This document shows, in pieces, positions 7,560-27,308 of a stretch of 64,000 nucleotides of DNA; the stretch's first letter is position 1; each line of letters opens with the position of its first letter. The stretch comes from an uncultured candidatus Brocadiaceae bacterium. Lineage in GTDB: Bacteria; Planctomycetota; Brocadiia; SM23-32. Location of the stretch: the NCBI GenBank assembly GCA_964521715.1, contig CAZFSS010000001.1, positions 26,802 through 90,801 of the forward strand. The letters are read 5' to 3'. The position numbers and the translations under genes were made by a program. The notes beneath the pieces are model-generated. The model did not search any database and had not been told where the DNA came from. It worked only from the letters and a program-made list of their open reading frames with translations.

Positions 7560-8060
7560 GGGGGCCCTTCGCTTCCATGAGGGAGTAGGCCAGTGGCAAG
7601 CCGCCTGAGCGCATTCTAAGCATCGCCGTCCGCCTGCGCAAGGCAGCGGGGGATGGGCCCGATCTGCTCCGTGAGCGAGTGCTGCTCGACCTCGCCCACG
7701 CCTGTCCTTCGGAGCTTGAGCGGAGTGGGATCGCCGCGGGCGCTCTTCGGCCCCTGGAGCGGAAAGGGGTTCGGCGGTTGGACCCCGGCGGTCCGGGAGC
7801 GCGAGCAGCAGATCCTGGCCGAGGCCCTCGGCCTCGAGCGCGGGGCTATGGCCGAGATCGAGGCGGCGCTGGAGGCCTCAGGCGCGGAGATACCTTAACC
7901 GCCGGCTCGAAGCGCCTGAGGCGTGGCTGCCGGGCGGTTGAACAGGCCTTGACAATAGGCCGTCTTAAGTATAGACTCCCGCGCGGTTGACACCGCAGAG
8001 CCTCACAGGTTGTTCCCGTGGGCCAGCGACGGGCTGACCCTTGACCGGCGAAAGGAGGGG

Positions 8061-9251
8061 ATGGAGATGTCCAGGTGCGGATGGAGGGTGTTGGTTGGCG
8101 TAGCGGTGGCCGCACTCGCAGGGACGGCTGTGCCCGCCAGGGCTAGCGTCGTGCTGCTGGACGAGTACTGGTCGCCCGAGATCATGGTGAACGACGTGAA
8201 GATGACGGAGGTCGACACCGAGGCGACCGGCGACCCCACACAGGCCGTGGCTGGCTACTTCAGCGCGAAGCTGGAGAACACGACCGGCGCACCTAACGTG
8301 CGTTTCCGCAACGCGGCCACCGTGCGGCCAGCCGACCTGCCGCCGGATGACACGGAGGCCAGGCTCTGGTACCGAACCGACAAGTGGAACGGCAAGATGG
8401 CGCTGGAGGTCTGGCTCTACGTTCCGTCGGCCGGCCGGCCCGTGCAGATGCTGACGGCCGAGCTTGACGGAGGCGGCGAGGCCGGCCGGCTGATCGCCGA
8501 CGACCGCTGGCACCTCGCGAAGGGGCTCCTCAAGAAGGGCACGGAGTATGACGTGGCCGCTGCAGAGACAGTGCCGACTGCCGCCTTCATCTGGCTGCGC
8601 CCGAGGGAGGGCTGGGACATCGCCCACACGACCTACGTCGACCGCATCGAGGCCGTCGTCGTCAGTGGGCCGGTGAAGGACAAGCCCATGCCGGCGCCCG
8701 CCCGCCGCGTCAGGCCCCTGCCGGGCGCCCAGATCAACGCGCCCGGGCTGGTCCTGATCGAGGGCGAGAACATTGCCAAGGACCCGTTCCCTCCCGGCAG
8801 CGCCTACCTGCCGGACTACGCCGACGAGCAGAGGCTGCTGAGCAACGGCGCGTGGCTTCAGTCAGCGGAGGTGCCCGGCGCGGTGGCCGCATGGCAGTTC
8901 AGCGTCGCCGACGCCGGCCGCTACGCGCTGTGGGCGCGCGGGTTCTGGTTCCGCGGCGGGTTCCGCTGGCGCGTGGACGGGGGCGAGTGGCAGACGTCCG
9001 GCCCGGACCGGAAGATCGTGAACGCGGTCCATTACCGGGACATCGATGCCGAGGCCTGGGGCCTGCCGGCGATCACCGTCGGCTGGACGCCGCTCGGGCA
9101 GGTCACGCTGCCTGAGGGCGAACACACGCTGGAAATCGAATGCACGGAGGACGCGCTCGGCTTCGCCTTCGACTGCTGGGTGCTGGCGCGGGACGCGTTC
9201 GCCGCGCCTGGTCCGGCAGCCGCGCCGTCGGGCGAAGCACAAGCGCCGTGA
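8061..9251 (+). CDS. secreted protein with C-terminal carbohydrate-binding-like beta-sandwich domain
   Basis: ATG after aaaggagggg RBS; signal peptide MEMSRCGWRVLVGVAVAALAGTAVPARA; Trp/Gly-rich C-terminal region (AWQFSVADAGRYALWARGFWFRGGFRWRVDGGEWQ) resembling CBM-type domains. Confidence 0.6.
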   Translation: MEMSRCGWRVLVGVAVAALAGTAVPARASVVLLDEYWSPEIMVNDVKMTEVDTEATGDPTQAVAGYFSAKLENTTGAPNVRFRNAATVRPADLPPDDTEARLWYRTDKWNGKMALEVWLYVPSAGRPVQMLTAELDGGGEAGRLIADDRWHLAKGLLKKGTEYDVAAAETVPTAAFIWLRPREGWDIAHTTYVDRIEAVVVSGPVKDKPMPAPARRVRPLPGAQINAPGLVLIEGENIAKDPFPPGSAYLPDYADEQRLLSNGAWLQSAEVPGAVAAWQFSVADAGRYALWARGFWFRGGFRWRVDGGEWQTSGPDRKIVNAVHYRDIDAEAWGLPAITVGWTPLGQVTLPEGEHTLEIECTEDALGFAFDCWVLARDAFAAPGPAAAPSGEAQAP

Positions 9252-9459
9252 CGCGCAGGCAGCAGCGGCCCGGTCGTGACCAAGGACGCGGGAGGCCAGG
9301 TGACGTGGAGTTCCGCAGGCGGGTCGCAGTAGGTGCCGCAGGTCCCGATCTCGCCGCAGCGTTTTGCGCGCCGTTGACGCTTCCGCCGCCCGGCGGTAAT
9401 CTCGGAGCCTCTCTGTGGACCGGGCTCATTCCCCTTCCGTGCGAGCAGGCGAGGGCCAC

Positions 9460-10656
9460 ATGGCAGCGATCCAAGTCAGCCCGAACGGGCGTTACTTCGT
9501 GGACGATCAGGGGGAGCCTTTCTTCTGGCTGGGCGATACCCAGTGGGAGTTGTTCCGTGCCTTCACGCCCGAAGACGCCAGGACCGTGCTGGAACGCAGG
9601 AGGCAGCAGGGGTTCACGGCCATACAGATCATGATCACCGGCGTAGGCGAGGGGAAGCTGCCGAACGTGGCAGGCGAGCGGCCGTGGCTCGGGGACGATC
9701 CGTCCTCCCCCAACGAGGCCTATTTCCGCAACGTCGACCGCGTGGTCGAAGCGGCATGTGAGCTGGGCCTGATCCTGGTCCCGGGCGTGTTCCACCAGTT
9801 GCAGCGTGCCTCGATAACCACAGCCAACGCCAGGCGGTACGCCGGATGGGTGGCAGAGCGCTACGCTGAAGTGCCCAACATCGTGTGGACGATGTACCCT
9901 GCGGCCCAGGACGAGTTCATCCCCGTCCTTCGCGAGCTGGCGGCGGGCCTGCAGGAAGGGGATGGCGGCACTCATCCCATCACCGTGCATCCCGATCCCT
10001 CGCCTGCGTCCTCGAGCTTCATCCACGATGAGGAGTGGCTGGACTTCAACATGATCCAGCCGTGGCAGCGGCCCGACCTGGTCTACAGCATGGTGAGGGC
10101 GGACTACGCGCGCACGCCGGTCAAGCCCGTCGTCATGGCGGAAGCATCTTACGAAGGCGTCCGCCACGGAAGGGTTAACACCCCTCTGCTGATCCGCCAG
10201 CAGGCGTATTGGTCCTATCTGGCGGGGGGCCACCACACCTACGGCAACGGGGGCAACTGCGACTCGCCCGGCACCTGGCGGTCCTGGATCGACTCCCCGG
10301 GAGCGCGCCACGTCGGCGTTTGCCGGCAGGTGCTGATGGGATTGAGCGAGTGGTGGGGCCTCATCCCGGATCAGTCGGTCTTCGCCGCCGGAGAAGGCAG
10401 CGGGGCGACGGTCAACATGGCGGCGCGTTCTCCGACAGGCGAGTGGGCGCTCGTCTACCTGAGCAGCAGCACGACGGTGTCGGTCCGGCTGGAGCGGGTC
10501 GCTGCCGGAGCCCCGATCGCCGCGTCGTGGATCGACCCCACGACCGGCGCAAGGACGGGAATCGGCGGCGTCCCGAGCACGGGGGTCGCGCCCTTCTCGA
10601 CTCCGAGCGGATGGGAGGACGCCCTGCTGTTATTTGAGCGACTGCCTGGCGGTTGA
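9460..10656 (+). CDS. DUF4038 domain protein (GH140-like glycoside hydrolase family)
   Basis: Motif GEPFFWLGDTQWELF near the N-terminus is the DUF4038 hallmark; TIM-barrel-like hydrolase; ATG at 9460 with gagggccac upstream (the track ORF starts at 9415). Confidence 0.8.
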   Translation: MAAIQVSPNGRYFVDDQGEPFFWLGDTQWELFRAFTPEDARTVLERRRQQGFTAIQIMITGVGEGKLPNVAGERPWLGDDPSSPNEAYFRNVDRVVEAACELGLILVPGVFHQLQRASITTANARRYAGWVAERYAEVPNIVWTMYPAAQDEFIPVLRELAAGLQEGDGGTHPITVHPDPSPASSSFIHDEEWLDFNMIQPWQRPDLVYSMVRADYARTPVKPVVMAEASYEGVRHGRVNTPLLIRQQAYWSYLAGGHHTYGNGGNCDSPGTWRSWIDSPGARHVGVCRQVLMGLSEWWGLIPDQSVFAAGEGSGATVNMAARSPTGEWALVYLSSSTTVSVRLERVAAGAPIAASWIDPTTGARTGIGGVPSTGVAPFSTPSGWEDALLLFERLPGG

Positions 10657-12054
10657 GCCGGAGACGGTCGGCAGCCTCTTCGCCGCGTCGTCGAGGACCA
10701 GCACCCAGTCGTCCTGCTCGCCGCAGGAAGGCGGGGTGAACTCCTGCACGCCCGTGTTCGCGTACTCGCCGATGCGGTCCCAGCCGCCCGTGCGCGGATC
10801 GTACCAGTGAGCGACGACCCGGCCGCCGGAGATCCTGTCCAGGCGGGCGCTGAACGGGTTCCCGAACGGAGAGTACGCAAGGGCGAAGCTGCCATCCTCG
10901 GCACGGGCGGACTGGACGTGATCCTCCAGGGGCCCCTGGATTGACGCGACGATGCCCTGATCCGGAACCATGCGGTGCCAGGGCCGCAACTCCAGGAGCC
11001 TGCGCATGTAGCCGATGCCGAAGGCGCCCGCGCAGTCCATGGCCTCGCGCCAGTTCATGCTGGGCGACAGATCCCCCTGGAGGTACGAGTAGTCAACGGA
11101 TGAGAGCCGGGGATTATCGGCCTCGTAGAATTGCCACATCTCCCACGCGCCGTACCCGTTGCCGGCGGCGCCGGCCAGCATGTTCCAGTAGGCCGCTTCC
11201 CGGACCTGGTGTGCGTCTATGCGCTTCTTGCCCGCCGTCCAGGAGAAGATGGGCGGATGGTTCTCATAGCGGGTCTCCATGTCCAGCGTGGGCTTGGCGG
11301 GCGTGAGGTTGTAGTCGTGCGTGATGAACTCGTAGTTGAGGGTGCCCCACGCGTGGCTGGACTGGATCGCGTTGAAGTCGAGCCAGTCGGCCTCGTGGAA
11401 CCAGAACGAAGAGGAATACCCGACCACGCCCGGCGCGGGGCCGGGCCCGTGGTAGGAGACAAGGTGGGCGCCCGCGCTTCCCTCCTTGAGGCCCCCGGCA
11501 ATGGCGGCCCACACCGCCTCGTATCCGGCGGGCGACCGGTCGCCGCCAAGGAACCAGACGACGGCGTTCTGCCTGTAGCGACTGCCCAGGAACCTGCCGA
11601 AGGCGGATGCGTTGGACTCGGTCAGGACCTGCTCGTCGAGGCCGCCCTTGCGCACATGCTCGCCGGAGTTGGTCACGATGCCCATCACCAGGCCGAGCTC
11701 GTTCGCGCGGCTGACGATGTAGTCCACGTTCTCGAAGAACGCCTCGTTCGGCCGGGCGGGGTCGCCGTCCACGAGCGTAAGGTCGCCGTAAAGGTTCGGC
11801 GCCTTCAGGCCGCGCAGCATGTAGGCCTGGATGACCGTAAAGCCCTTGGCCGCGCGGTTCGTCAGGTACGCGTCCACTTCCTCATGGTTCAGGCGCTTGA
11901 ACAACTGCCAGCCGGTATCGGCGAGATAGAGGAACGGCCTGCCACTGTCGGTGACGAAGTGCCGGCCGTTGGAGCTGACTCTCAGCCGCATGCCTTTGAC
12001 CGAACCGGACGCCGGGAAGAGGGGACTCCCAGGCTTCTCCAAGGGCGTTGACAT
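10630..12054 (-). CDS. DUF4038 domain protein (GH140-like), paralog of 9460..10656
   Basis: Motif GRPFLYLADTGWQLF; strong RBS (caggaggaaccgtcATG); 3' end overlaps the convergent paralog by 27 bp. Confidence 0.8.
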   Translation of the reverse strand: MSTPLEKPGSPLFPASGSVKGMRLRVSSNGRHFVTDSGRPFLYLADTGWQLFKRLNHEEVDAYLTNRAAKGFTVIQAYMLRGLKAPNLYGDLTLVDGDPARPNEAFFENVDYIVSRANELGLVMGIVTNSGEHVRKGGLDEQVLTESNASAFGRFLGSRYRQNAVVWFLGGDRSPAGYEAVWAAIAGGLKEGSAGAHLVSYHGPGPAPGVVGYSSSFWFHEADWLDFNAIQSSHAWGTLNYEFITHDYNLTPAKPTLDMETRYENHPPIFSWTAGKKRIDAHQVREAAYWNMLAGAAGNGYGAWEMWQFYEADNPRLSSVDYSYLQGDLSPSMNWREAMDCAGAFGIGYMRRLLELRPWHRMVPDQGIVASIQGPLEDHVQSARAEDGSFALAYSPFGNPFSARLDRISGGRVVAHWYDPRTGGWDRIGEYANTGVQEFTPPSCGEQDDWVLVLDDAAKRLPTVSGSTARQSLK

Positions 12055-19180: not shown

Positions 19181-19314
19181 GCGCGTCCCGCCATGCTGGC
19201 AAGTGCGATCCGCTTTCGTAGGGGCACGGCGCGCCGTGCCCCTACCTCACGGAGCCAAAGGCGGCCTGCCCGGAAGCTCGGTGTTGAAGTTCCAGCGGGA
19301 ACCTGGCATTGCGT

Positions 19315-20566: not shown

Positions 20567-21583
20567 ATGATCAGGGTCGGAATCATAGGGCTGGGGGGCA
20601 TGGGCAACATGCATCTGGGCTGCTACGCCGCGGTCCAGGGCGCCGAGGTCGTGGCCGTGGCGGACATACGGGAGGAGAGGCTCCACGCCGGCCAGACCTC
20701 CCAGCAGATCAACATCGGCGCGGGCGGCGGCAGGCTCGATCCCGAGAAGCAGAAGCTCACCACGAACGCCGACGAGCTCATTGACGATCCGGACATCGAC
20801 ATGCTGGACATCTGCCTGCCGACGTTCCTGCACGCCGAGCACTGCAAGAAAGGGCTGCAAGCCGGCAAGCACGTCCTATGCGAGAAGCCGATGGCGCTCA
20901 CGCACCGCGAGTGCGAAGACGTGCTGAAGGTGGTCCAGGACGCCCCCGGCAAGCTGATGATCGCCCATTGCGTGCGGTTCTTCCCGGCCTACGAGTACCT
21001 GAACGAGGCGATCGAGTCCGGTCGGTTCGGCCGGCTGCTTGAGCTGTCCATGTGGCGGGGGGGCTCGCCGCCGCGCTGGTCGTGGGAGAACTGGCTCCTG
21101 AACCACGTGCGCAGCGGCGGCGGCATGCTGGACCTGCACGTGCACGACGCGGACTTCGTCCACCACGTGCTGGGCAGGCCGCGCGCCGTCTGCTCCACGG
21201 GAGCCGTGGGACCCAGCGGGGGCTACGACGCAGTGGACACCCAGTACGTCTACGAGGACAAGATGGCCGTGCGCGCCGGGGCCAACCTGGCGCTGCCGAC
21301 CGGCTTCGGCTTCGAGGCACACTTCCTGGCGGCCTTTGAGAAGGGGTGCCTGCGGTTCAGCACCGCCGAGCACGACGGGCTGATGGAGATCACCGACGAG
21401 GGCACCAGTCATCCCGGCCTGCCCGAGAAGAACGGCTACCAGGAGGAGATCGCCTACTTCGTGAGATGCATCCAGAACGACGAGGTCCCGGCCGTCGTTA
21501 CGCCCGAGTCAAGCGCCTTCTCCGTCAGGCTGATCGAGGCGGAGAGGGAATCCATCGAGACGGGCCGCTCCGTGGCGCTCTGA
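20567..21583 (+). CDS. Gfo/Idh/MocA family oxidoreductase
   Basis: Rossmann N-terminus MIRVGIIGLGGMGNMH, motif EKPMAL; GGAGG RBS 8 nt upstream. Confidence 0.9.
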   Translation: MIRVGIIGLGGMGNMHLGCYAAVQGAEVVAVADIREERLHAGQTSQQINIGAGGGRLDPEKQKLTTNADELIDDPDIDMLDICLPTFLHAEHCKKGLQAGKHVLCEKPMALTHRECEDVLKVVQDAPGKLMIAHCVRFFPAYEYLNEAIESGRFGRLLELSMWRGGSPPRWSWENWLLNHVRSGGGMLDLHVHDADFVHHVLGRPRAVCSTGAVGPSGGYDAVDTQYVYEDKMAVRAGANLALPTGFGFEAHFLAAFEKGCLRFSTAEHDGLMEITDEGTSHPGLPEKNGYQEEIAYFVRCIQNDEVPAVVTPESSAFSVRLIEAERESIETGRSVAL

Positions 21584-21601
21584 CGCGGCCCCCGTCCCCG
21601 C

Positions 21602-21835
21602 CACGGCCATCCACCACGGAGACACTGAGAACACGGAGAACGGCAACACCAGGATAAACCACTACGACACGACGAGCACAACGCAGTAATACAGGCTGTA
21701 ACGCCGTGCTCGTTGTGCCGTTGTGGTTGGCTCTCTCTGGTGCGCCGTGTTTCTGCTGTTTGTCGTTCGCCGAGGTCCCTGCCGTCTCTGCCGTTCTCGG
21801 TGCTCTCCGTGTCTCCGTGGTGAGATGTTGTCAGG
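21602..21835. repeat. copy 1 of a ~230-bp imperfect direct repeat flanking the R-M islet
   Basis: Aligns with 24373..24657 (shared cacggcca...cactgaga(c)acggag..aacggcaac..aaccactacgacacgacga.cacaacg.agtaat.caggctgtaacgccgtgctcgttgtgccgttgtggtt...ccgtctctgccgttctc.gtg.tctccgtggtg.gatgttgt); contains internal inverted repeats; coordinates approximate. Confidence 0.7.
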
Positions 21836-22151
21836 CTTCGGCCGCGCGCGCCAGGTTGAGCTCCAGCAGCTTCTCCAGTATCTCCTCGTCCGTGGTGTCG
21901 GGCTTCCAGGCCGGGTCGCCCGTCGTCGCCGCGTAGGCCGCGCAGACGGCCCCGTCCAGCTTCGCGTGTGCGTTGCGCAGCCAGGTGGGCGTCTCGTTGT
22001 AGAGGTTGGTGAGGGTCCGCTTCTTGAGGGCCTTCGCGAACGGCGGGTCCGGGACGGTGCGGGGATAGCGGACCGTGCCGATGCCGTTCTGGTCCGCGTC
22101 ATAGACGTACCGGGCCCAGGGGCCGTCTACGGAGCCGGGGAATTGGAGCAC
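21831..22151 (-). pseudogene. C-terminal remnant of a Type IIL/IIG (MmeI-like) or BREX PglX-like DNA methyltransferase
   Basis: 106-aa ORF with the characteristic C-terminal motif of these large methyltransferases: NLYNETPTWLRNAHAKLDGAVCAAYA...TDEEILEKLLELNLARA; far too short to be complete. Confidence 0.6.
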
Positions 22152-22223
22152 TTCCGCGACGGTCCACTCGGGCGGGTTGAGCCAGCGCTCGCGCAGCTCG
22201 TTCAGTTCCCGTGCGGCGAGTGT

Positions 22224-22857
22224 CTACGGCCCAATGCCGATGATGACGAGTGGGACGGGAGGGTTGTTGCGCCCGTGGCGCATTATGTTGTAGACCTCCC
22301 CCTCGAAGTACGCGATGCCGGTGGACATCAGGCGGCCGCCCTCGGGATCGCTCATCATCGCTTTCACCGGGAGAATCTCTATGCCGACGTCGATGATGCC
22401 GCCGGCGTAGAATAGCAGATGCTTGACGAACAGGTCGTAGGCGACAAACGCGTACTTGCCGAACTGTACCTCGATGGCGATTTGGTCCTTGACGAAGTCG
22501 GTCTGTTTATACGACAGGATCGGCTTCGTTACGCCGTGCTCCTCAAGGAACCTCTTCTGGTCGTCAAGGGACAGGTTCACAACTTGCTCTAACAGCTTGC
22601 GGTCAGTCGTCACGTAGTACTCGTACCGGACGCCCTGCCAGCCAGCGGCCTCGGGCCCGACTTGCGAAGCCGGCGTTCAACATGTGCGGGCTGTACAGCC
22701 TCTTCCCCTTCATCGTTTTCTCTTCGCTTACCTTCGTGCGGCACTGGTCGGCGTGTACCTGCGCGATCACGCAGTTGATTTCCCCGTAGAGACTCCGATG
22801 GTGTACGAGAAGGAACTCCTCGCCGTTCAGGTGCGAGTATACTTCGACTATCCTCAC
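22224..22857 (-). pseudogene. BglII/BstYI-family type II restriction endonuclease, split by a frameshift
   Basis: The 84-aa ORF (22603..22857, MRIVEVYSHLNGEEF...) and 129-aa ORF (22224..22613) are in different frames. The C-terminal part (KPILSYKQTDFVKDQIAIEVQFGKYAFVAYDLFVKHL...IDVGIEIL) aligns with the BglII catalytic core (DFLGTDIDFGKRDTLVEVQFSNYPFLL). Combined length of about 213 aa matches BglII (223 aa). Confidence 0.65.
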
Positions 22858-22899
22858 TGTTGGGGTCCCTCCCCGGCGGCCTGGCTTCGTCTATGATGT

Positions 22900-23793
22900 T
22901 TATGTGTCGAACAGAGAAGACGTCCGCGTGTTGCTGGCGGGCTCTTTCGGCTTGTATATGGGCTTATTCATCGGCCGAACGCGAAGTCTGCCCGCAGCCG
23001 CGGCCCTTATGCGTTCCTCCGCGATGTCGATGTACTCCTTCACTATCTCCGCACCGTGGCCGCTGCGCGCATGGCGCACAGCCGCAACGATCGTCGTCCC
23101 GACCCCAGCAAACGGATCGAAGACGGCATCCCCCGGACGAGTCATGGACAGCACGAGCCGCTCTACGAGGCCCACGGGGAACTGGCACGGATGCGCAGTC
23201 TTCTCCACATGGTTGCTCTTGACGTTCGGAATGTCCCACACGTCGCCGGGGTTCTTCCCCCGCGGGTCGCAGGAGTACTCGCCTGCCTTCGAGCCCTTGA
23301 AGTACTTCTTGCCAGGGTACTTCTGCGGGACGCGCACGGGGTCGAGATCGAAGAAGTAATCGTCGGTCTTCGTGTACCACACGATGGTCTCGTACCGGCC
23401 GGAGAAGCGGTTCTTGCAGTGCAGTCCGTGACCGAAGCGCCACACAATGCGGTTGCGCATCTTCAGACCTAAGTCCGCGAAGACCGGGTACAGCAGGGAG
23501 TCCACCGGGACGATCGCGCCGTTCTTCACATAGTTGCCGACCTGCCAGCACAGGCTGCCGTTCGGGCGCAGCACGCGCACGCACTCCGAGATGACCTGGC
23601 GCTGCTGGTCGGCGTAGCTGTCGGGGTCGATCCTGCTCTCGTACTCTTTGCCGATGTTGTACGGGGGCGAAGTAACCACAAGCTGGATGCACTCCGTCGG
23701 CATGGTGGAGAGCATCTCCAGGCAGTCCCCGTGGTACAGAGTGACAACGTTGTCGACGTGGAACGACTGAGCTATCTCGACTTGCCTGAGCAT
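22900..23793 (-). CDS. beta-class DNA methyltransferase (N4-cytosine/N6-adenine, M.BglII-like)
   Basis: Motif IV TSPPY N-terminal to motif I DPFAGVGTT (beta-class order); LYHGDCLEML N-terminus; ATG at 23791-23793 with GGAGG RBS 7 nt upstream; appears full length. Confidence 0.85.
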   Translation of the reverse strand: MLRQVEIAQSFHVDNVVTLYHGDCLEMLSTMPTECIQLVVTSPPYNIGKEYESRIDPDSYADQQRQVISECVRVLRPNGSLCWQVGNYVKNGAIVPVDSLLYPVFADLGLKMRNRIVWRFGHGLHCKNRFSGRYETIVWYTKTDDYFFDLDPVRVPQKYPGKKYFKGSKAGEYSCDPRGKNPGDVWDIPNVKSNHVEKTAHPCQFPVGLVERLVLSMTRPGDAVFDPFAGVGTTIVAAVRHARSGHGAEIVKEYIDIAEERIRAAAAGRLRVRPMNKPIYKPKEPASNTRTSSLFDT

Positions 23794-24371
23794 TCCGGCA
23801 CCTCCGAGCGCTCGGCGTTCTGCAAACGGATCGGCGTCCATTCTACCGTTCCCGTCGGCGAAAGCAACCTGCCCAACGCCGGCGCAGGCCAGGATGCTGA
23901 GCGCGGATCGGGCAGCTTGGAGAGGCGTATCTCGTGGACCTCGACGGGCGTGGCGGTGAAGTTCGTGCGGACGATGATGCGGTCCATGTCGGACACGACG
24001 AGGAGGGGCGGGTTCTCGAGGTCCTCGCGGTACTGGAGGAGCTGATCGTAGGCGGCGTCGAGGTCCTTGTGCTTGCCCTTGTGTTCCCAGGCGAAGAAGC
24101 CCTTCTTCCATACGTCGGCCCAGTCGTCGCCGCCGCCGTGCTTGGCGGCCCCCTTCTCGAAGGTGAACTACTCGCCGGTCGGGTCGGCCTCGGCGGGCTT
24201 GGGGTGGTCGACGAGCTCGCAGAGGTCGAGGAAGTGCTGCTGGGAGGCGGAGCGCTCCGAGAGATCGGCGGTGCCCCACTTCTGGATGAACCGGACGGCG
24301 TCCATGCGGATTGTGCCCTCCTCACTCCGGGCAACCCCGTGAAAGGTAACAGAACCGGCGGCCGGGGTCAA
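23772..24371 (-). pseudogene. N-terminal remnant of the same Type IIL / PglX-like DNA methyltransferase, with in-frame TAG
   Basis: Conserved N-terminal signature of MmeI/PglX-like enzymes: FIQKWGTADLSERSASQQHFLDLCELVDHPKPAEADPTGE*FTFEKGAAKHGGGDDWADVWKKGFFAWEHKGKHKDLDAAYDQLLQYREDLENPPLLVVSDMDRIIVRTNFT. The TAG at 24168-24170 replaces the Trp codon found in intact homologs; the reading frame ends at 23772. Confidence 0.6.
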
Positions 24372-24372
24372 T

Positions 24373-24657
24373 CACGGCCAGGACGGCACACCACTGAGAC
24401 ACGGAGGACACGGAGAACGGCAACGATGGGGTTAACCACTACGACACGACGAACACAACGAAGTAATGCAGGCTGTAACGCCGTGCTCGTTGTGCCGTTG
24501 TGGTTAGCTCATTCTGGTGGGCCGTCTCTCTGTTGTTCGTCGTTGCCCCAGGTATCTTCCGTCTCTGCCGTTCTCCGTGTGCTCCGTCCGGCCTTCGTAG
24601 CCGAAGCCACTTCGGCGGAGTAGGCTGTCTCCGTGGTGGGATGTTGTTGGGGGGGAC
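24373..24657. repeat. copy 2 of the ~230-bp direct repeat (carries an extra ~40-bp hairpin-containing insertion)
   Basis: Aligns with 21602..21835; extra segment ccggccttcgtagccgaagccacttcggcggagtaggctg containing the hairpin gccgaag-ccac-cttcggc; the repeat abuts the mutS stop codon (24657-24659); coordinates approximate. Confidence 0.7.
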
Positions 24658-27308
24658 TAACGGCTTTCGCGGTTCTGCTTGAGCCGCTCGATGATGTCGT
24701 TGAGCTTGTTGAGCGCTTCCAGCGGCGTCATGCCGCTCGTGTCGAGCGCGAGGAGCTCGTCCCTGACCTCCGCGTCGAGCGGCTTGAACAGCGGCATCTG
24801 GAGGTGGCGGGGCTCGGGGCCGCCAGCCCTCCTGTCGGCGGTCGACGGCTGCCTGGGGGCGAAGCGCGGCTCGTCGTTGGGCCCGACGGCGTTCTCCTCC
24901 AGGTGCTGAAGGATGTCCCGCGAGCGCTCGAGCACTTCGGCCGGCACTCCCGCCAGCCTGGCCACGTGGATGCCGTAGCTGCGGTCCGTTGCGCCAGGGA
25001 CGACGCGGTGCAGGAAGACGACCTCGTTCTGCCACTCGCGCACGGCCACGTTCAGGTTGCGCACGCCCTCGCAGACCTGTGCGAGTTGGGCCAGCTCGTG
25101 GTAGTGGGTGGCGAAGAGCGTTCTGGCGCCGATGCGATCGTGGACGTATTCGCCGGTGGCCCAGGCGATGCTGACGCCGTCGAAGGTGCTCGTGCCGCGG
25201 CCGACCTCGTCGAGGATGATGAGGCTGCGGTCGGTGGCGCTGTTGAGGATGTTGGCGACCTCGATCATCTCGACCATGAAGGTGCTCTGGCCCCGGCGCT
25301 GCTCGTCGCTGGCGCCGACGCGGGTGAAGATGCGGTCGACCAGGCCGACGGTCGCCTCGGCCGCCGGCACGAAGGAGCCAATCTGGGCCATCAGGACGAT
25401 GAGGGCCGTCTGCCGGATGTAGACGCTCTTGCCGGACATGTTCGGGCCGGTGATGACGAGAAGGCGCACCTGCTCGCCGTCCATCTCGATGTCGTTGGGC
25501 ACGAACTGCTCGTCCAGGATCCGCTCCAGCACGGGATGGCGCCCGTCCCTGATGCGCAGCGTGCGGTCCGCGGTCAGCGTGGGACGGACGTAGCCGTTCT
25601 CGTCCGCAACCGTCGCCAGCGAGACGAGCACGTCCAGGGCGGCCAGGGCTTCCGCCGTCCTCTGGAGCCTTTCGGTGTGCGAGCTGACTTGCTGGCGGAC
25701 CTGCTGGAACAGCTCGTATTCCAGCTCCTTGGCCCGCTCGCCCGCGCCCAGCACGGCGGACTCGCGATCCTTCAGCTCGGGCGTGATGTAGCGCTCGGCG
25801 TTCTTCAGCGTCTGCTTGCGGATGTAGTGCGCGGGCACCTTGTCCCGGTGGGTGTTGGTCACCTCGATGTAGTAGCCGAACACCTTGTTGAAGCCGACCT
25901 TGAGCGAGGGGATGCCGGTCCGTTCGGCCTCCTTTGCCTGGAGGTCGGCGATCCAGGTGCGGCCCTGGCGCCCGGTGCCGCGGAGCTCGTCGAGCTCCGG
26001 GTTGAATCCGTCCCGGATGATGCCGCCTTCCGTGATGACGGCGGGCGGGTCCGCCTTGATGGCGGAGGCGATCAGCCCTTCGACTTCGGGGATGGGGTCA
26101 ATGGCGGCGACCAGGTCCGCCAGCATCTGCGAGCCGACGCCGGCCGACTGCTCCTTCAGCTTGGGCAGGCGCGACAGGGATCGCCCCAGGGCGACCAGGT
26201 CCCGGGCGCCGGCGCGGGCGCAGTAGATCTTCGTCGTCAGCCGCTCGATGTCGTAAATGCTTTTGAGCTCGTTGCTTAGCGCATGGCGGCGAGGGCGGTT
26301 GCCGTGCAGTTCGGCCACGGCGTCCAGGCGCCGCTCGATCTCGTCGGCCTGGCGCAGGGGCGTAAGGAGCCAGCGCCTCAGGAGCCGCGCGCCCATCGGC
26401 GTGGACGTCCTGTCCAGCATTTGCAGGAGGCTGCCCTCCTGGCCGGCGCCGCGTATGGTATGGATGAGCTCCAGGCTGCGTTGCGTCGTGCTGTCGAGGA
26501 TCAGGTAACGCTCGCTGGCGAAGGGCTCTATCTTGCGGATGTGCCCGAGCGTGGTCTTCTGGGTCTCCTGCAGGTAGCAGAGCAGGGCGCCCGCGGCCCC
26601 GAGCGCCGGGCCCATGCCTTCGCATCCGAAGCCGTCCAGGCTGCGCGTGCCGAAGTGCCCGTTCAGCCGCCGCCGCCCGTCTTCCTGGTTGAACTCCCAC
26701 GGCGGGCGGCGCGTGATGAGGCAGCCCTCCGGCAGGCGCGCCCGGGGGGAGAGGCCGTCGCCCTCGTCCTCGCGCTCGACGCGGGGCAGGAGGCACTCAG
26801 CGGGCGAGACGCGCTGCAGGCTGTCGCCGACCGCCTCGGGGGGCACTTCTTCAACCTCGAACTTGCCGGTCGAAAGGTCGACCCAGGCCAGTCCGGCCCT
26901 GGCGTCGCCGAGCGCGACGGCCGCCAGGAAGTTATTCGAGCGGCTGTCCAGCAGGTGATCTTCGGTCAGCGTGCCGGCGGTGATAACGCGCGTGACGTCC
27001 CGCTCCACGAGCCCGGTGGCCTCCGCCGGATCCTGCACCTGCTCGCAGATGGCGACGCGGTGTCCGGCCCGGATCAGGCGCTTGATGTAGTTCTCGGCTG
27101 CGTGGTGAGGGAAGCCGGCCATGGGCACGGCGTTCTCGCCTTTCTCGCGGCTGGTCAGGGCCAGGCCGAGGTCGCGCGCGCAGACCTGCGCGTCGTCGAA
27201 GAACACCTCGTAGAAATCCCCCATGCGGAAGAGCAGGATGGCGTCCTGGTGCCTTTTCTTGAAGGCCAGGTACTGCTTCATCACGGGTGTATGGGCCGGT
27301 TTCGCCAT
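24657..27308 (-). CDS. mutS: DNA mismatch repair protein MutS
   Basis: N-terminal TPVMKQYLAFKKRH...LLFRMGDFYE, Walker A GPNMSGKS, ST..DE; full-length (~884 aa) MutS1; ATG at 27306-27308 preferred over the upstream TTG track start. Confidence 0.95.
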   Translation of the reverse strand: MAKPAHTPVMKQYLAFKKRHQDAILLFRMGDFYEVFFDDAQVCARDLGLALTSREKGENAVPMAGFPHHAAENYIKRLIRAGHRVAICEQVQDPAEATGLVERDVTRVITAGTLTEDHLLDSRSNNFLAAVALGDARAGLAWVDLSTGKFEVEEVPPEAVGDSLQRVSPAECLLPRVEREDEGDGLSPRARLPEGCLITRRPPWEFNQEDGRRRLNGHFGTRSLDGFGCEGMGPALGAAGALLCYLQETQKTTLGHIRKIEPFASERYLILDSTTQRSLELIHTIRGAGQEGSLLQMLDRTSTPMGARLLRRWLLTPLRQADEIERRLDAVAELHGNRPRRHALSNELKSIYDIERLTTKIYCARAGARDLVALGRSLSRLPKLKEQSAGVGSQMLADLVAAIDPIPEVEGLIASAIKADPPAVITEGGIIRDGFNPELDELRGTGRQGRTWIADLQAKEAERTGIPSLKVGFNKVFGYYIEVTNTHRDKVPAHYIRKQTLKNAERYITPELKDRESAVLGAGERAKELEYELFQQVRQQVSSHTERLQRTAEALAALDVLVSLATVADENGYVRPTLTADRTLRIRDGRHPVLERILDEQFVPNDIEMDGEQVRLLVITGPNMSGKSVYIRQTALIVLMAQIGSFVPAAEATVGLVDRIFTRVGASDEQRRGQSTFMVEMIEVANILNSATDRSLIILDEVGRGTSTFDGVSIAWATGEYVHDRIGARTLFATHYHELAQLAQVCEGVRNLNVAVREWQNEVVFLHRVVPGATDRSYGIHVARLAGVPAEVLERSRDILQHLEENAVGPNDEPRFAPRQPSTADRRAGGPEPRHLQMPLFKPLDAEVRDELLALDTSGMTPLEALNKLNDIIERLKQNRESR

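Follow-up and report, generated by a model that had tools for sequence, protein, structure and literature searches.

In a 64,000-nucleotide (nt) stretch of DNA from an uncultured candidatus Brocadiaceae bacterium (contig CAZFSS010000001.1; the whole stretch is called the window, and its positions serve as coordinates), a defence island with all of its features on the minus strand lies downstream of mutS. The island holds both ends of a gene of the MmeI family (Type IIL/IIG restriction-modification enzymes), and the place of the gene's centre is taken by an unrelated, BglII-type restriction-modification (R-M) cassette (Table 1). Very probably, the centre of a resident MmeI-like gene was substituted by the cassette and decay followed. 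A first-pass annotation had described here an unrelated BglII-like R-M pair between the N- and C-terminal remnants of one large gene, which keep a common strand and their original order; alignment to a syntenic locus, tblastn and Pfam bear this out. The proposal that one defence module stands in place of another is likewise supported by the syntenic locus, L180, where the same flanking genes enclose a gene that keeps its 2.1-kb centre.

Like all comparison loci used here, L180 is a metagenome contig. It was found with a chimeric full-length protein query (N-terminal end from the window, centre from the locus L093, C-terminal end from the window), which retrieved the protein P0256, 84% identical in its N-terminal part to the N remnant of the window. 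The order of genes in L180 is rpsI, rplM, a zinc-ribbon gene, mutS, the MmeI-like gene, a Gfo/Idh/MocA oxidoreductase gene and lpxK, the same as in the window. Indeed, the window is collinear with L180 over 29000-19327 at 81–84% nucleotide identity with the gene centre as the sole exception: the L180 gene aligns at 84–86% to 24399-23901 and 22217-21812, and nothing between these blocks aligns. Window positions 23900-22218 (1683 nt) stand for L180 positions 8406-10547, a gene centre of 2142 nt that encodes the helical spacer, the N6-adenine methyltransferase domain and the target recognition domain (TRD). The breakpoints are 23901|23900 and 22218|22217 in the window and 8405|8406 and 10547|10548 in L180, and the intact relatives L093 and L094 give the same ones. 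Neither the repeat search nor the L180 alignment revealed a target duplication at 23901|23900 or 22218|22217, and the only sequence common to both ancestral breakpoints is GCCGC.

Table 1. Features of the mutS–oxidoreductase locus, in window coordinates.
Feature	Position	Strand	Remarks
mutS	27308-24657	-	stop codon 24657-24659
Upstream palindromic element	24372..24647	-	276 nt; begins right behind the mutS stop codon
5′ leader of the MmeI-like gene	24306..24399	-	kept in orthologous and related loci
N-terminal remnant of the MmeI-family gene	23901..24305	-	codons 1-135; most of the PD-(D/E)XK endonuclease domain
In-frame TAG, codon 46 of the N remnant	24168..24170	-	TGG in the closest relatives
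Foreign lower-GC cassette	22218..23900	-	1683 nt; breakpoints from collinear alignment with L180, L093 and L094
Putative cassette promoter	23840..23867	-	TTGCTT, 16 nt, TAGAAT
Beta-class DNA methyltransferase, intact, 297 aa	22900..23793	-	ATG 23793 preceded by GGAGG; SPPY motif
BglII/BstYI-family endonuclease, pseudogene	22224..22857	-	GTG 22857; +1 frameshift at ~22660-22651; TAG 22226-22224
C-terminal remnant of the MmeI-family gene	21831..22217	-	last ~128 codons and stop; C-terminal helical bundle
Downstream palindromic element	21595..21831	-	237 nt; between the MmeI-like stop and the convergent oxidoreductase gene

Synonymous divergence (dS) and the ratio of non-synonymous to synonymous divergence (omega) between the window and L180 are similar in the remnants and in host genes. 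The values of dS and omega are 0.365 and 0.185 for mutS, 0.364 and 0.272 for the oxidoreductase gene, 0.476 and 0.278 for rpsI, 0.35 and 0.24 for the N remnant, and 0.40 and 0.35 for the C remnant. Because the dS of the remnants is at the level of host genes and their omega is low, the gene was resident at this locus, vertically inherited and, for the larger part of the period after the split, intact and kept under purifying selection. By these comparisons, the replacement is younger than the split between the window and L180. In L180 itself, a 35-nt tandem duplication (GCTGGAGTTCCCCGGCTCCATCGACGGCCCCTGGG) at ~10606-10641 frameshifts the syntenic ortholog near its 3′ end; the gene at this locus was therefore inactivated independently in both lineages. 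An exact look-up of the MutS protein gave no match. A MutS scan of genome contigs reached a best identity of only ~55%, and among the best 80 MutS-matching loci listed none carries the remnants, the cassette or the palindromic repeat.

The remnants are recognizable by comparison with full-length proteins. Three plasmid-borne relatives (918–1036 aa) match the window at two places only by tblastn: their residues 1 to ~136 correspond to 24305..~23900 (E 1e-38 to 1e-46) and their last ~60–110 residues to 22217..~21890 (E 1e-9 to 1e-12). The extents first proposed need adjustment. The N-terminal module given as 24371..23772 is present, but its open reading frame (ORF) starts at ATG 24305 and the homology ends at 23901; the matching tail given as 22151..21831 is also present, but its homology sets in at 22217-22223, immediately behind the endonuclease stop. 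The start of the C remnant may reach 22223, abutting that stop codon, and its end is the TGA at 21833-21831. Homology to related loci includes the 5′ leader: L180 7907-8405 matches 24399-23901 at 84% (blastn), and the match extends to 24381 in L094 and to 24426 in L085.

The ORF of the N remnant reads MDAVRFIQKWGTADLSERSASQQHFLDLCEL...DPTGE, is then stopped by the TAG at 24170-24168, and the frame resumes with FTFEKGAAKHGGGDDWADVWKKGFFAWEHKGKHKDL...TNFTATPVEVHEIRLSKLPDPR. The remnant is 54–59% identical to the N domain of the full-length relatives and aligns to residues 12-122 of MmeI (PDB 5HR4; HMMER, E 0.014). The catalytic residues of MmeI are D70, E80 and K82 in an N-terminal PD-(D/E)XK domain (PMC4833311); this motif, D70...E80-X-K82 (vDLf...iEmK), falls on ADVW...WEHK of the window, in which D...EXK is retained. 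The remnant gave no match in Pfam or NCBIfam profile searches, and MmeI_N was not detected at E<=0.01 to 0.1. As for the TAG, it had been placed at a conserved Trp. The stop codon is there and L180 and L085 have TGG at the position, but the Trp is lineage-specific, the residue being T, H or R in the plasmid-borne relatives and S in L093 and L094. Since L180 and L085 are the closest relatives, TGG>TAG is the likely change behind the stop.

The C remnant matches Pfam MmeI_C at E 2.3e-4 and 21.8 bits, below the curated cut-off of 27, and part of it aligns to MmeI residues 851-881. The spacer, the methyltransferase domain and the TRD are absent from the window copy, where the cassette is in their place, and are all found in the L180 and L093 orthologs: MmeI_hel at E 7e-15 (L180) and 3e-15 (L093), MmeI_Mtase at E 7e-24 to 7e-27, MmeI_TRD at E 5e-7 to 1e-9, and a weak MmeI_C. 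Likeness to the MmeI family (PMC2731913; PMC4833311) thus consists in the N remnant aligning to the MmeI endonuclease domain with D...EXK kept, in the domains of the intact orthologs standing in MmeI order, and in the position of the right junction at MmeI 825/826, the boundary between the TRD and the C-terminal bundle (PMC4833311). Differences are the missing spacer, methyltransferase domain and TRD, an N domain to which Pfam MmeI_N is blind in the window's subfamily, and a lineage-specific insertion in the C region (FPGSVDGPWARYV...GIGTVRYPR). The window copy is a remnant of a family member and cannot be active as an MmeI enzyme. Cutting about 20 nt away from an asymmetric site, together with methylation of a single strand, is a biochemical property of the family; the gene that would confer it is broken in the window and frameshifted in L180.

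The large gene had first been called “Type IIL / BREX-PglX-like”, and the remnants might accordingly be parts of a degraded bacteriophage exclusion (BREX) system. PglX and MmeI-type enzymes do have a common gamma-class methyltransferase core, and intact relatives show weak PglX profile matches over that gamma-class motif. However, an intact ortholog matches the PADLOC Type IIG endonuclease-methyltransferase model at E 1e-257, and the PglX models reach only ~1e-4, on a stretch of about 70 residues; the BREX methyltransferase models of NCBIfam stay at 13–22 bits, their cut-offs being 400–900; and Pfam MmeI_hel, MmeI_Mtase and MmeI_TRD are present in the orthologs. Furthermore, no BREX partner genes are found within 8 kb on either side of the orthologous gene or beside the island, and the neighbours in the window and L180 (rpsI, rplM, the zinc-ribbon gene, mutS, the oxidoreductase gene and lpxK) are housekeeping genes. 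Because of the 5HR4 alignment, the Pfam, PADLOC and NCBIfam scores and these neighbours, the gene is assigned to the MmeI type; the Type IIL part of the earlier label stands, the PglX identity is rejected, and a BREX origin is extremely improbable.

The cassette extends from ~30 nt upstream of a promoter-like site to the endonuclease stop codon, and its GC content is 54–65%, as compared with 68–74% in the flanks. Its methyltransferase covers the full length of PF01555 with all positions (E 3e-52), matches PADLOC MTase_II at E 9e-88, aligns at its N-terminus with the methyltransferase (M) genes of L085, L087 and L090, and occurs as the exact protein in two Logan assemblies. Its SPPY motif is one which we take to favour N4-cytosine specificity. 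The endonuclease (R) gene lies in two frames, 22857-22603 (PF09195, E 8.5e-4) and ~22650-22224 (PF09195, E 1e-18), and DNA alignment with the two closest relatives, L085 and L173, places one extra base in a cgggccc run at ~22660-22651. A frame-repaired query retrieves thousands of relatives; all of the 120 listed are single ORFs of 204–232 aa, nearly all of 210, at 62–76% identity to the query (65–77% for relatives of about 210 aa annotated as BglII/BstYI family), and the homolog in L085 matches PADLOC REase_II at E 7e-74. The window endonuclease is therefore a pseudogene, with the methyltransferase as the only intact gene. The R-M pair nested in the MmeI-like gene was correctly noticed at first, but it is itself decaying. 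With a stop at codon 46 of the nuclease remnant, a frameshift in the endonuclease gene and an intact methyltransferase gene, the locus would now encode at most a solitary beta-class methyltransferase, which is an ordinary outcome of R-M decay.

Like BglII/BstYI Type IIP systems, the cassette has a PF09195 endonuclease gene adjacent to a PF01555 methyltransferase gene on the same strand; the window endonuclease differs in being frameshifted. The BglII system has a controller protein, C.BglII, and the window cassette leaves no room for a controller (C) protein ORF. The putative promoter, TTGCTT-16 nt-TAGAAT, was read from the sequence, and the pattern GTTGCTW...TASAATGRA is kept in the cassettes of L085 and L184; it is on this conservation that the site is taken as a putative promoter of the cassette. 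In the island (21800-24400), none of the 12 GATC sites is RGATCY, compared with 47 of 330 in the whole window, a statistically weak difference.

Could the composite be an assembly artefact, a chimeric join of an R-M contig to pieces of an MmeI-like gene, in which the TAG and the frameshift are sequencing errors? The source is apparently metagenome-derived, and short-read contigs of the same organism break near repeats. Nevertheless, two Logan assemblies from different sequencing runs, L174 and L175, are 100% identical to the window over 24252-22179 and so span both junctions together with the TAG and the frameshift, from which it follows that none of these is peculiar to one assembly; the same architecture is also present in the unrelated assemblies L085, L086 and L184. 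An artefact is very improbable. Both Logan contigs end at 22179, ~40 nt inside the C remnant, in the pattern of a de Bruijn graph branch, and further sequence with the same C arm (an intact allele or a second copy) may exist in those samples.

The window is not alone in having such a composite. The endonuclease homolog P0122 on L085/L086 is preceded by an MmeI N remnant of ~62 codons with its Trp intact, a promoter-like site and an M gene, is itself intact, and is followed by an MmeI C remnant; this composite lies between hairpin elements, next to an AP-endonuclease-family gene and CsgG genes. In L184, a frameshifted N remnant of 54 codons, TTGCTT-N17-TACAAT, an M gene (79% amino acid identity to that of the window), the intact R gene of P0157 and a C remnant, which begins 16 nt past the endonuclease stop, stand between unrelated flanks. 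The three composites are thus at three unrelated loci in the same order and orientation. Their left junctions differ (N arms of 135, ~62 and 54 codons in the window, L085/L086 and L184, respectively), while the C arms start, relative to the window junction, at 0, about -27 nt and about +10 nt, all within ~40 nt of the TRD/C-terminal bundle boundary. In a neighbour-joining tree (n = 121), the three nested endonucleases fall in one five-member clade. The same M-R pair is also free-standing between unrelated genes in L087, L090 and L181/L182, and in L173 no C remnant follows the endonuclease gene. Because of the lower GC content and these free-standing pairs, the cassette is considered to be of foreign origin.

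Cassettes and arms have different histories. Between the window and L085, dS is 1.64 for M and 1.3–2.2 for R, at least four times host dS and far above the divergence of the arms; third-position GC (GC3) is 0.92–0.96 in arms and host genes and 0.68–0.89 in cassettes, which makes the cross-region comparison of dS a rough one, and the contrast, at least fourfold, survives a hand-made composition-aware saturation correction. The L085 arms are 92–100% identical to the intact L180 gene, which comes from the same metagenome, with dS 0.14–0.22. By these divergences the cassettes are far older than the arms. In the tree of the arms, ((L085, L180), window), L180 keeps its centre, and hence the window copy and the L085 copy received the cassette in separate events.

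This tree bears on the possibility that a single ancient composite was inherited vertically or duplicated, and that the L180 centre was restored later from an intact donor allele. The grouping of the three nested cassettes in the endonuclease tree and their closely spaced right junctions would fit such a history. Yet the tree would then require restoration in its middle, L180 is syntenic with host-level divergence across the whole gene, the omega of the remnants is 0.24–0.35 and not ~1, and cassette dS is at least four times host dS; a single ancient composite is improbable.

The course of events that we favour, with slightly better than even confidence in it as a whole (substitution, entry of an allele through the arms, decay), is as follows. 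The lineage carried a ~3-kb MmeI-family gene between mutS and the oxidoreductase gene, bracketed by palindromic elements. After the split from the L180 lineage, the central 2142 nt were swapped for a 1683-nt unit of promoter-like site, M and R. Rather than through a fresh random break, this unit would have arrived as an allele of the gene, donated by a composite (N arm, cassette, C arm) that was already in circulation among related planctomycetes; crossovers would have taken place in the conserved coding sequence at the two gene ends, in a manner resembling minimal mobile element exchange in Neisseria. Lesions then accumulated, namely TGG>TAG in the N remnant and the +1 frameshift in the endonuclease, and spared the methyltransferase.

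The step through the conserved arms, in which a composite allele replaces the centre, is inferred, not shown, and we give it about an even chance. It is preferred because cassettes of one clade, in one orientation and with closely spaced right junctions, occur at unrelated loci; because arms resemble the local resident gene and cassettes are much older; and because the C arm near the junction loses its specific similarity to L180, which the distal part keeps: over the 220 nt that adjoin the junction L180 is not a better match than the distant L094, and the distal 160 nt are clearly closest to L180. Several points weigh against this account. No donor composite matching the window cassette and its junctions was found among the comparison loci. 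The junctions of the three composites differ on both sides, so that a single ancestral composite would have had to be eroded afterwards in every lineage. No clear crossover is seen in the N arm's identity profile, and homologous recombination works poorly on arms that are 75–85% identical. P0121 on L173, the closest relative among the endonucleases, is not followed by a C remnant within 300 nt. Furthermore, a sigma-70 consensus scan over 21400-24800 detected no promoter, and the first hexamer of the candidate site, TTGCTT, matches at three of six positions.

In the C remnant, the loop at ~22050-22000 reads VPDPPFAKAL, as in L094, P0075 and P0079, and that of L180, L085 and L184 reads VDNGVAPSRL or nearly so; here the window is locally just 51–56% identical to L180. 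The patch is a mosaic and, on sequence, points to recombination between alleles in the C region.

As a less probable alternative, each composite may have arisen de novo by illegitimate capture (microhomology or end joining) of a free BglII-type cassette, independently in each lineage. At a similarly low level of likelihood, the TRD/C-bundle boundary, an indel-prone hypervariable linker, may have acted as a hotspot of breakage or tolerance. In keeping with capture, the left junctions differ (codons 135, ~62 and 54) and the right ones are not identical, and the window junctions have no long homology or target duplication beyond the shared GCCGC. In keeping with a hotspot, the hypervariable linker (conservation 0.06) sits immediately before the C block, an IS-like (insertion sequence-like) ORF abuts the same zone in L171, and ParA-like cargo interrupts the gene further upstream in L168. 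More than 20 independent in-frame N+C fusions, deletion variants of the gene, have their C-side junctions clustered in the linker zone, a statistic that rests on a match list limited in protein length. Also, an AGATCC site lies in the ancestral sequence 8 nt to the right of the left breakpoint (L180 8414). There is, however, no GATC site near the right breakpoint, and insertion mediated by an endonuclease cut site, with one AGATCC near the left breakpoint and none at the right, is a weak lead. Three independent events involving one clade, the same gene, the same orientation and a ~40-nt zone are unlikely without a targeting mechanism, and no recombinase, inverted repeats or conserved end motif was found for the composites; in the island, the ORF list, Pfam and the repeat search gave no transposase or integrase ORF and no repeats at the cassette ends. 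An ACACTC/CAACTC motif common to the window and L085 junctions fits ordinary MmeI linker sequence and was dropped as evidence. On balance, allele entry through the arms is retained as the preferred route.

Substitution of R-M genes by other R-M genes has precedents. Described cases include the insertion of R-M systems into M genes or a Type IIG R-M gene, allelic exchange of one R-M type for another, and TRD substitution within Type IIG genes (Furuta, Abe and Kobayashi, 2010, PMC2853133). The window is similar to these cases in that one R-M system stands in another's place at a conserved chromosomal locus, the target is a Type IIG gene that decays afterwards, and no recombinase gene is linked. 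In contrast to them, the cassette junctions are without long target duplication, the substitution is inside a single gene with both gene ends left, and one cassette clade is nested in members of one gene family at no fewer than three unrelated loci. What is new relative to known R-M substitution is hence that it is internal to one gene, that a clade recurs at three loci at least, and that junctions are concentrated at one domain boundary. R-M genes are cargo of recombinase-free minimal mobile elements in Neisseria (Saunders and Snyder, 2002, as cited in PMC1797815), alternative small cassettes, often R-M, whose exchange is thought to proceed by homologous recombination in the flanks. Common to these elements and the present case is a different gene content between the same flanks (window versus L180) without mobility genes or terminal repeats. 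Here, however, the part of the flanks would be played by the two ends of a single disrupted defence gene and not by two housekeeping genes, the host is planctomycete-like, and the exchange through the arms is a proposed one.

Defence-gene turnover is usually inferred from patterns of presence and absence, and L180 and the window form a before/after pair with breakpoints to the base pair. The pair also gives a relative timing, after a host dS of ~0.36, and the later decay of both layers to what is predicted to be a solitary methyltransferase. MmeI-type genes are widespread and highly conserved, and the recurrence at three unrelated loci, together with junction clustering across dozens of deletion variants, suggests that they may be exchange sites for defence cassettes. 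Tentatively, the ends of MmeI-family genes may serve as portable homology arms, i.e., a recombinase-free landing platform for small defence or addiction cassettes with a preference for the TRD/C-bundle boundary, and N+C mini-genes would be its scars. If this is true, small cassettes (BglII-type R-M genes here, cargo of the ParA-like or toxin-antitoxin-like kind elsewhere) would take the place of the gene centre and move between lineages with a resident MmeI-like gene.

Other interrupted or shortened MmeI-like genes are known from the same searches. At least 43 protein clusters, drawn from the proteins P0001-P0120 and the loci L135, L138 and L185/L186 (5001-5636), consist of an in-frame MmeI N domain and C-terminal bundle without the spacer, methyltransferase domain and TRD. 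The N-side junctions of such fusions are spread over residues 64-330. Four independent assemblies have one of these fusions, P0022 (211 aa), as a lone gene with glmS on one side and a PhyH gene on the other. These N+C mini-genes may be scars of the same process or functional mini-proteins. An early impression that full-length relatives are rare was rejected, since the matches listed for a short query are at most ~1.7 times its own length (up to 458 aa with one of 264 aa); a 992-aa query retrieves thousands of full-length MmeI-like proteins, and most of the 80 metagenome loci listed carry intact genes.

Cargo of other kinds is also observed. In L168 (1-2540), a ParA-like ATPase gene (AAA_31, E 4e-35) and an opposite-strand ORF of 170 aa lie between a methyltransferase part and a C remnant, with the junction around the methyltransferase/TRD region. 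In L120 (1-2940), two C remnants enclose DUF433/DUF5615 (toxin-antitoxin-like) and DUF2513 genes. The IS-like ORF of L171 (1-1270) abuts LDNLRECWLNPPEW in the TRD/C-bundle boundary zone.

The two palindromic elements of the window bracket the whole MmeI-like gene, not the cassette; the downstream one lies before the oxidoreductase gene, which is convergent to the island and has its stop codon at 21581-21583. The elements are 83–85% identical, the upstream copy having a 39-nt internal insertion, and fold at -127 kcal/mol (z -6.2, upstream) and -129 kcal/mol (z -8.1, downstream). They are the only two copies in the 64 kb, and a search of the window against Rfam gave no match. In L180, the intact ortholog stands between diverged versions (7650-8000 and 10970-11180) that share the termini (TCTCACCACGGAGAC ... 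CTCAGTGGTG), and a related core hairpin flanks the composite of L085 (8096-8190 and 10690-10760), at a different locus. Short-read contigs of the same organism break inside the elements, as Logan contigs do in the downstream one. The elements may be like miniature inverted-repeat transposable elements, may be bidirectional terminators or may mark the way in which the MmeI-like gene itself arrived. A second, smaller palindromic intergenic element is located at 19183-19251 and matches L085 1175-1243 at 84.5% over 71 nt, in the reverse orientation as well.

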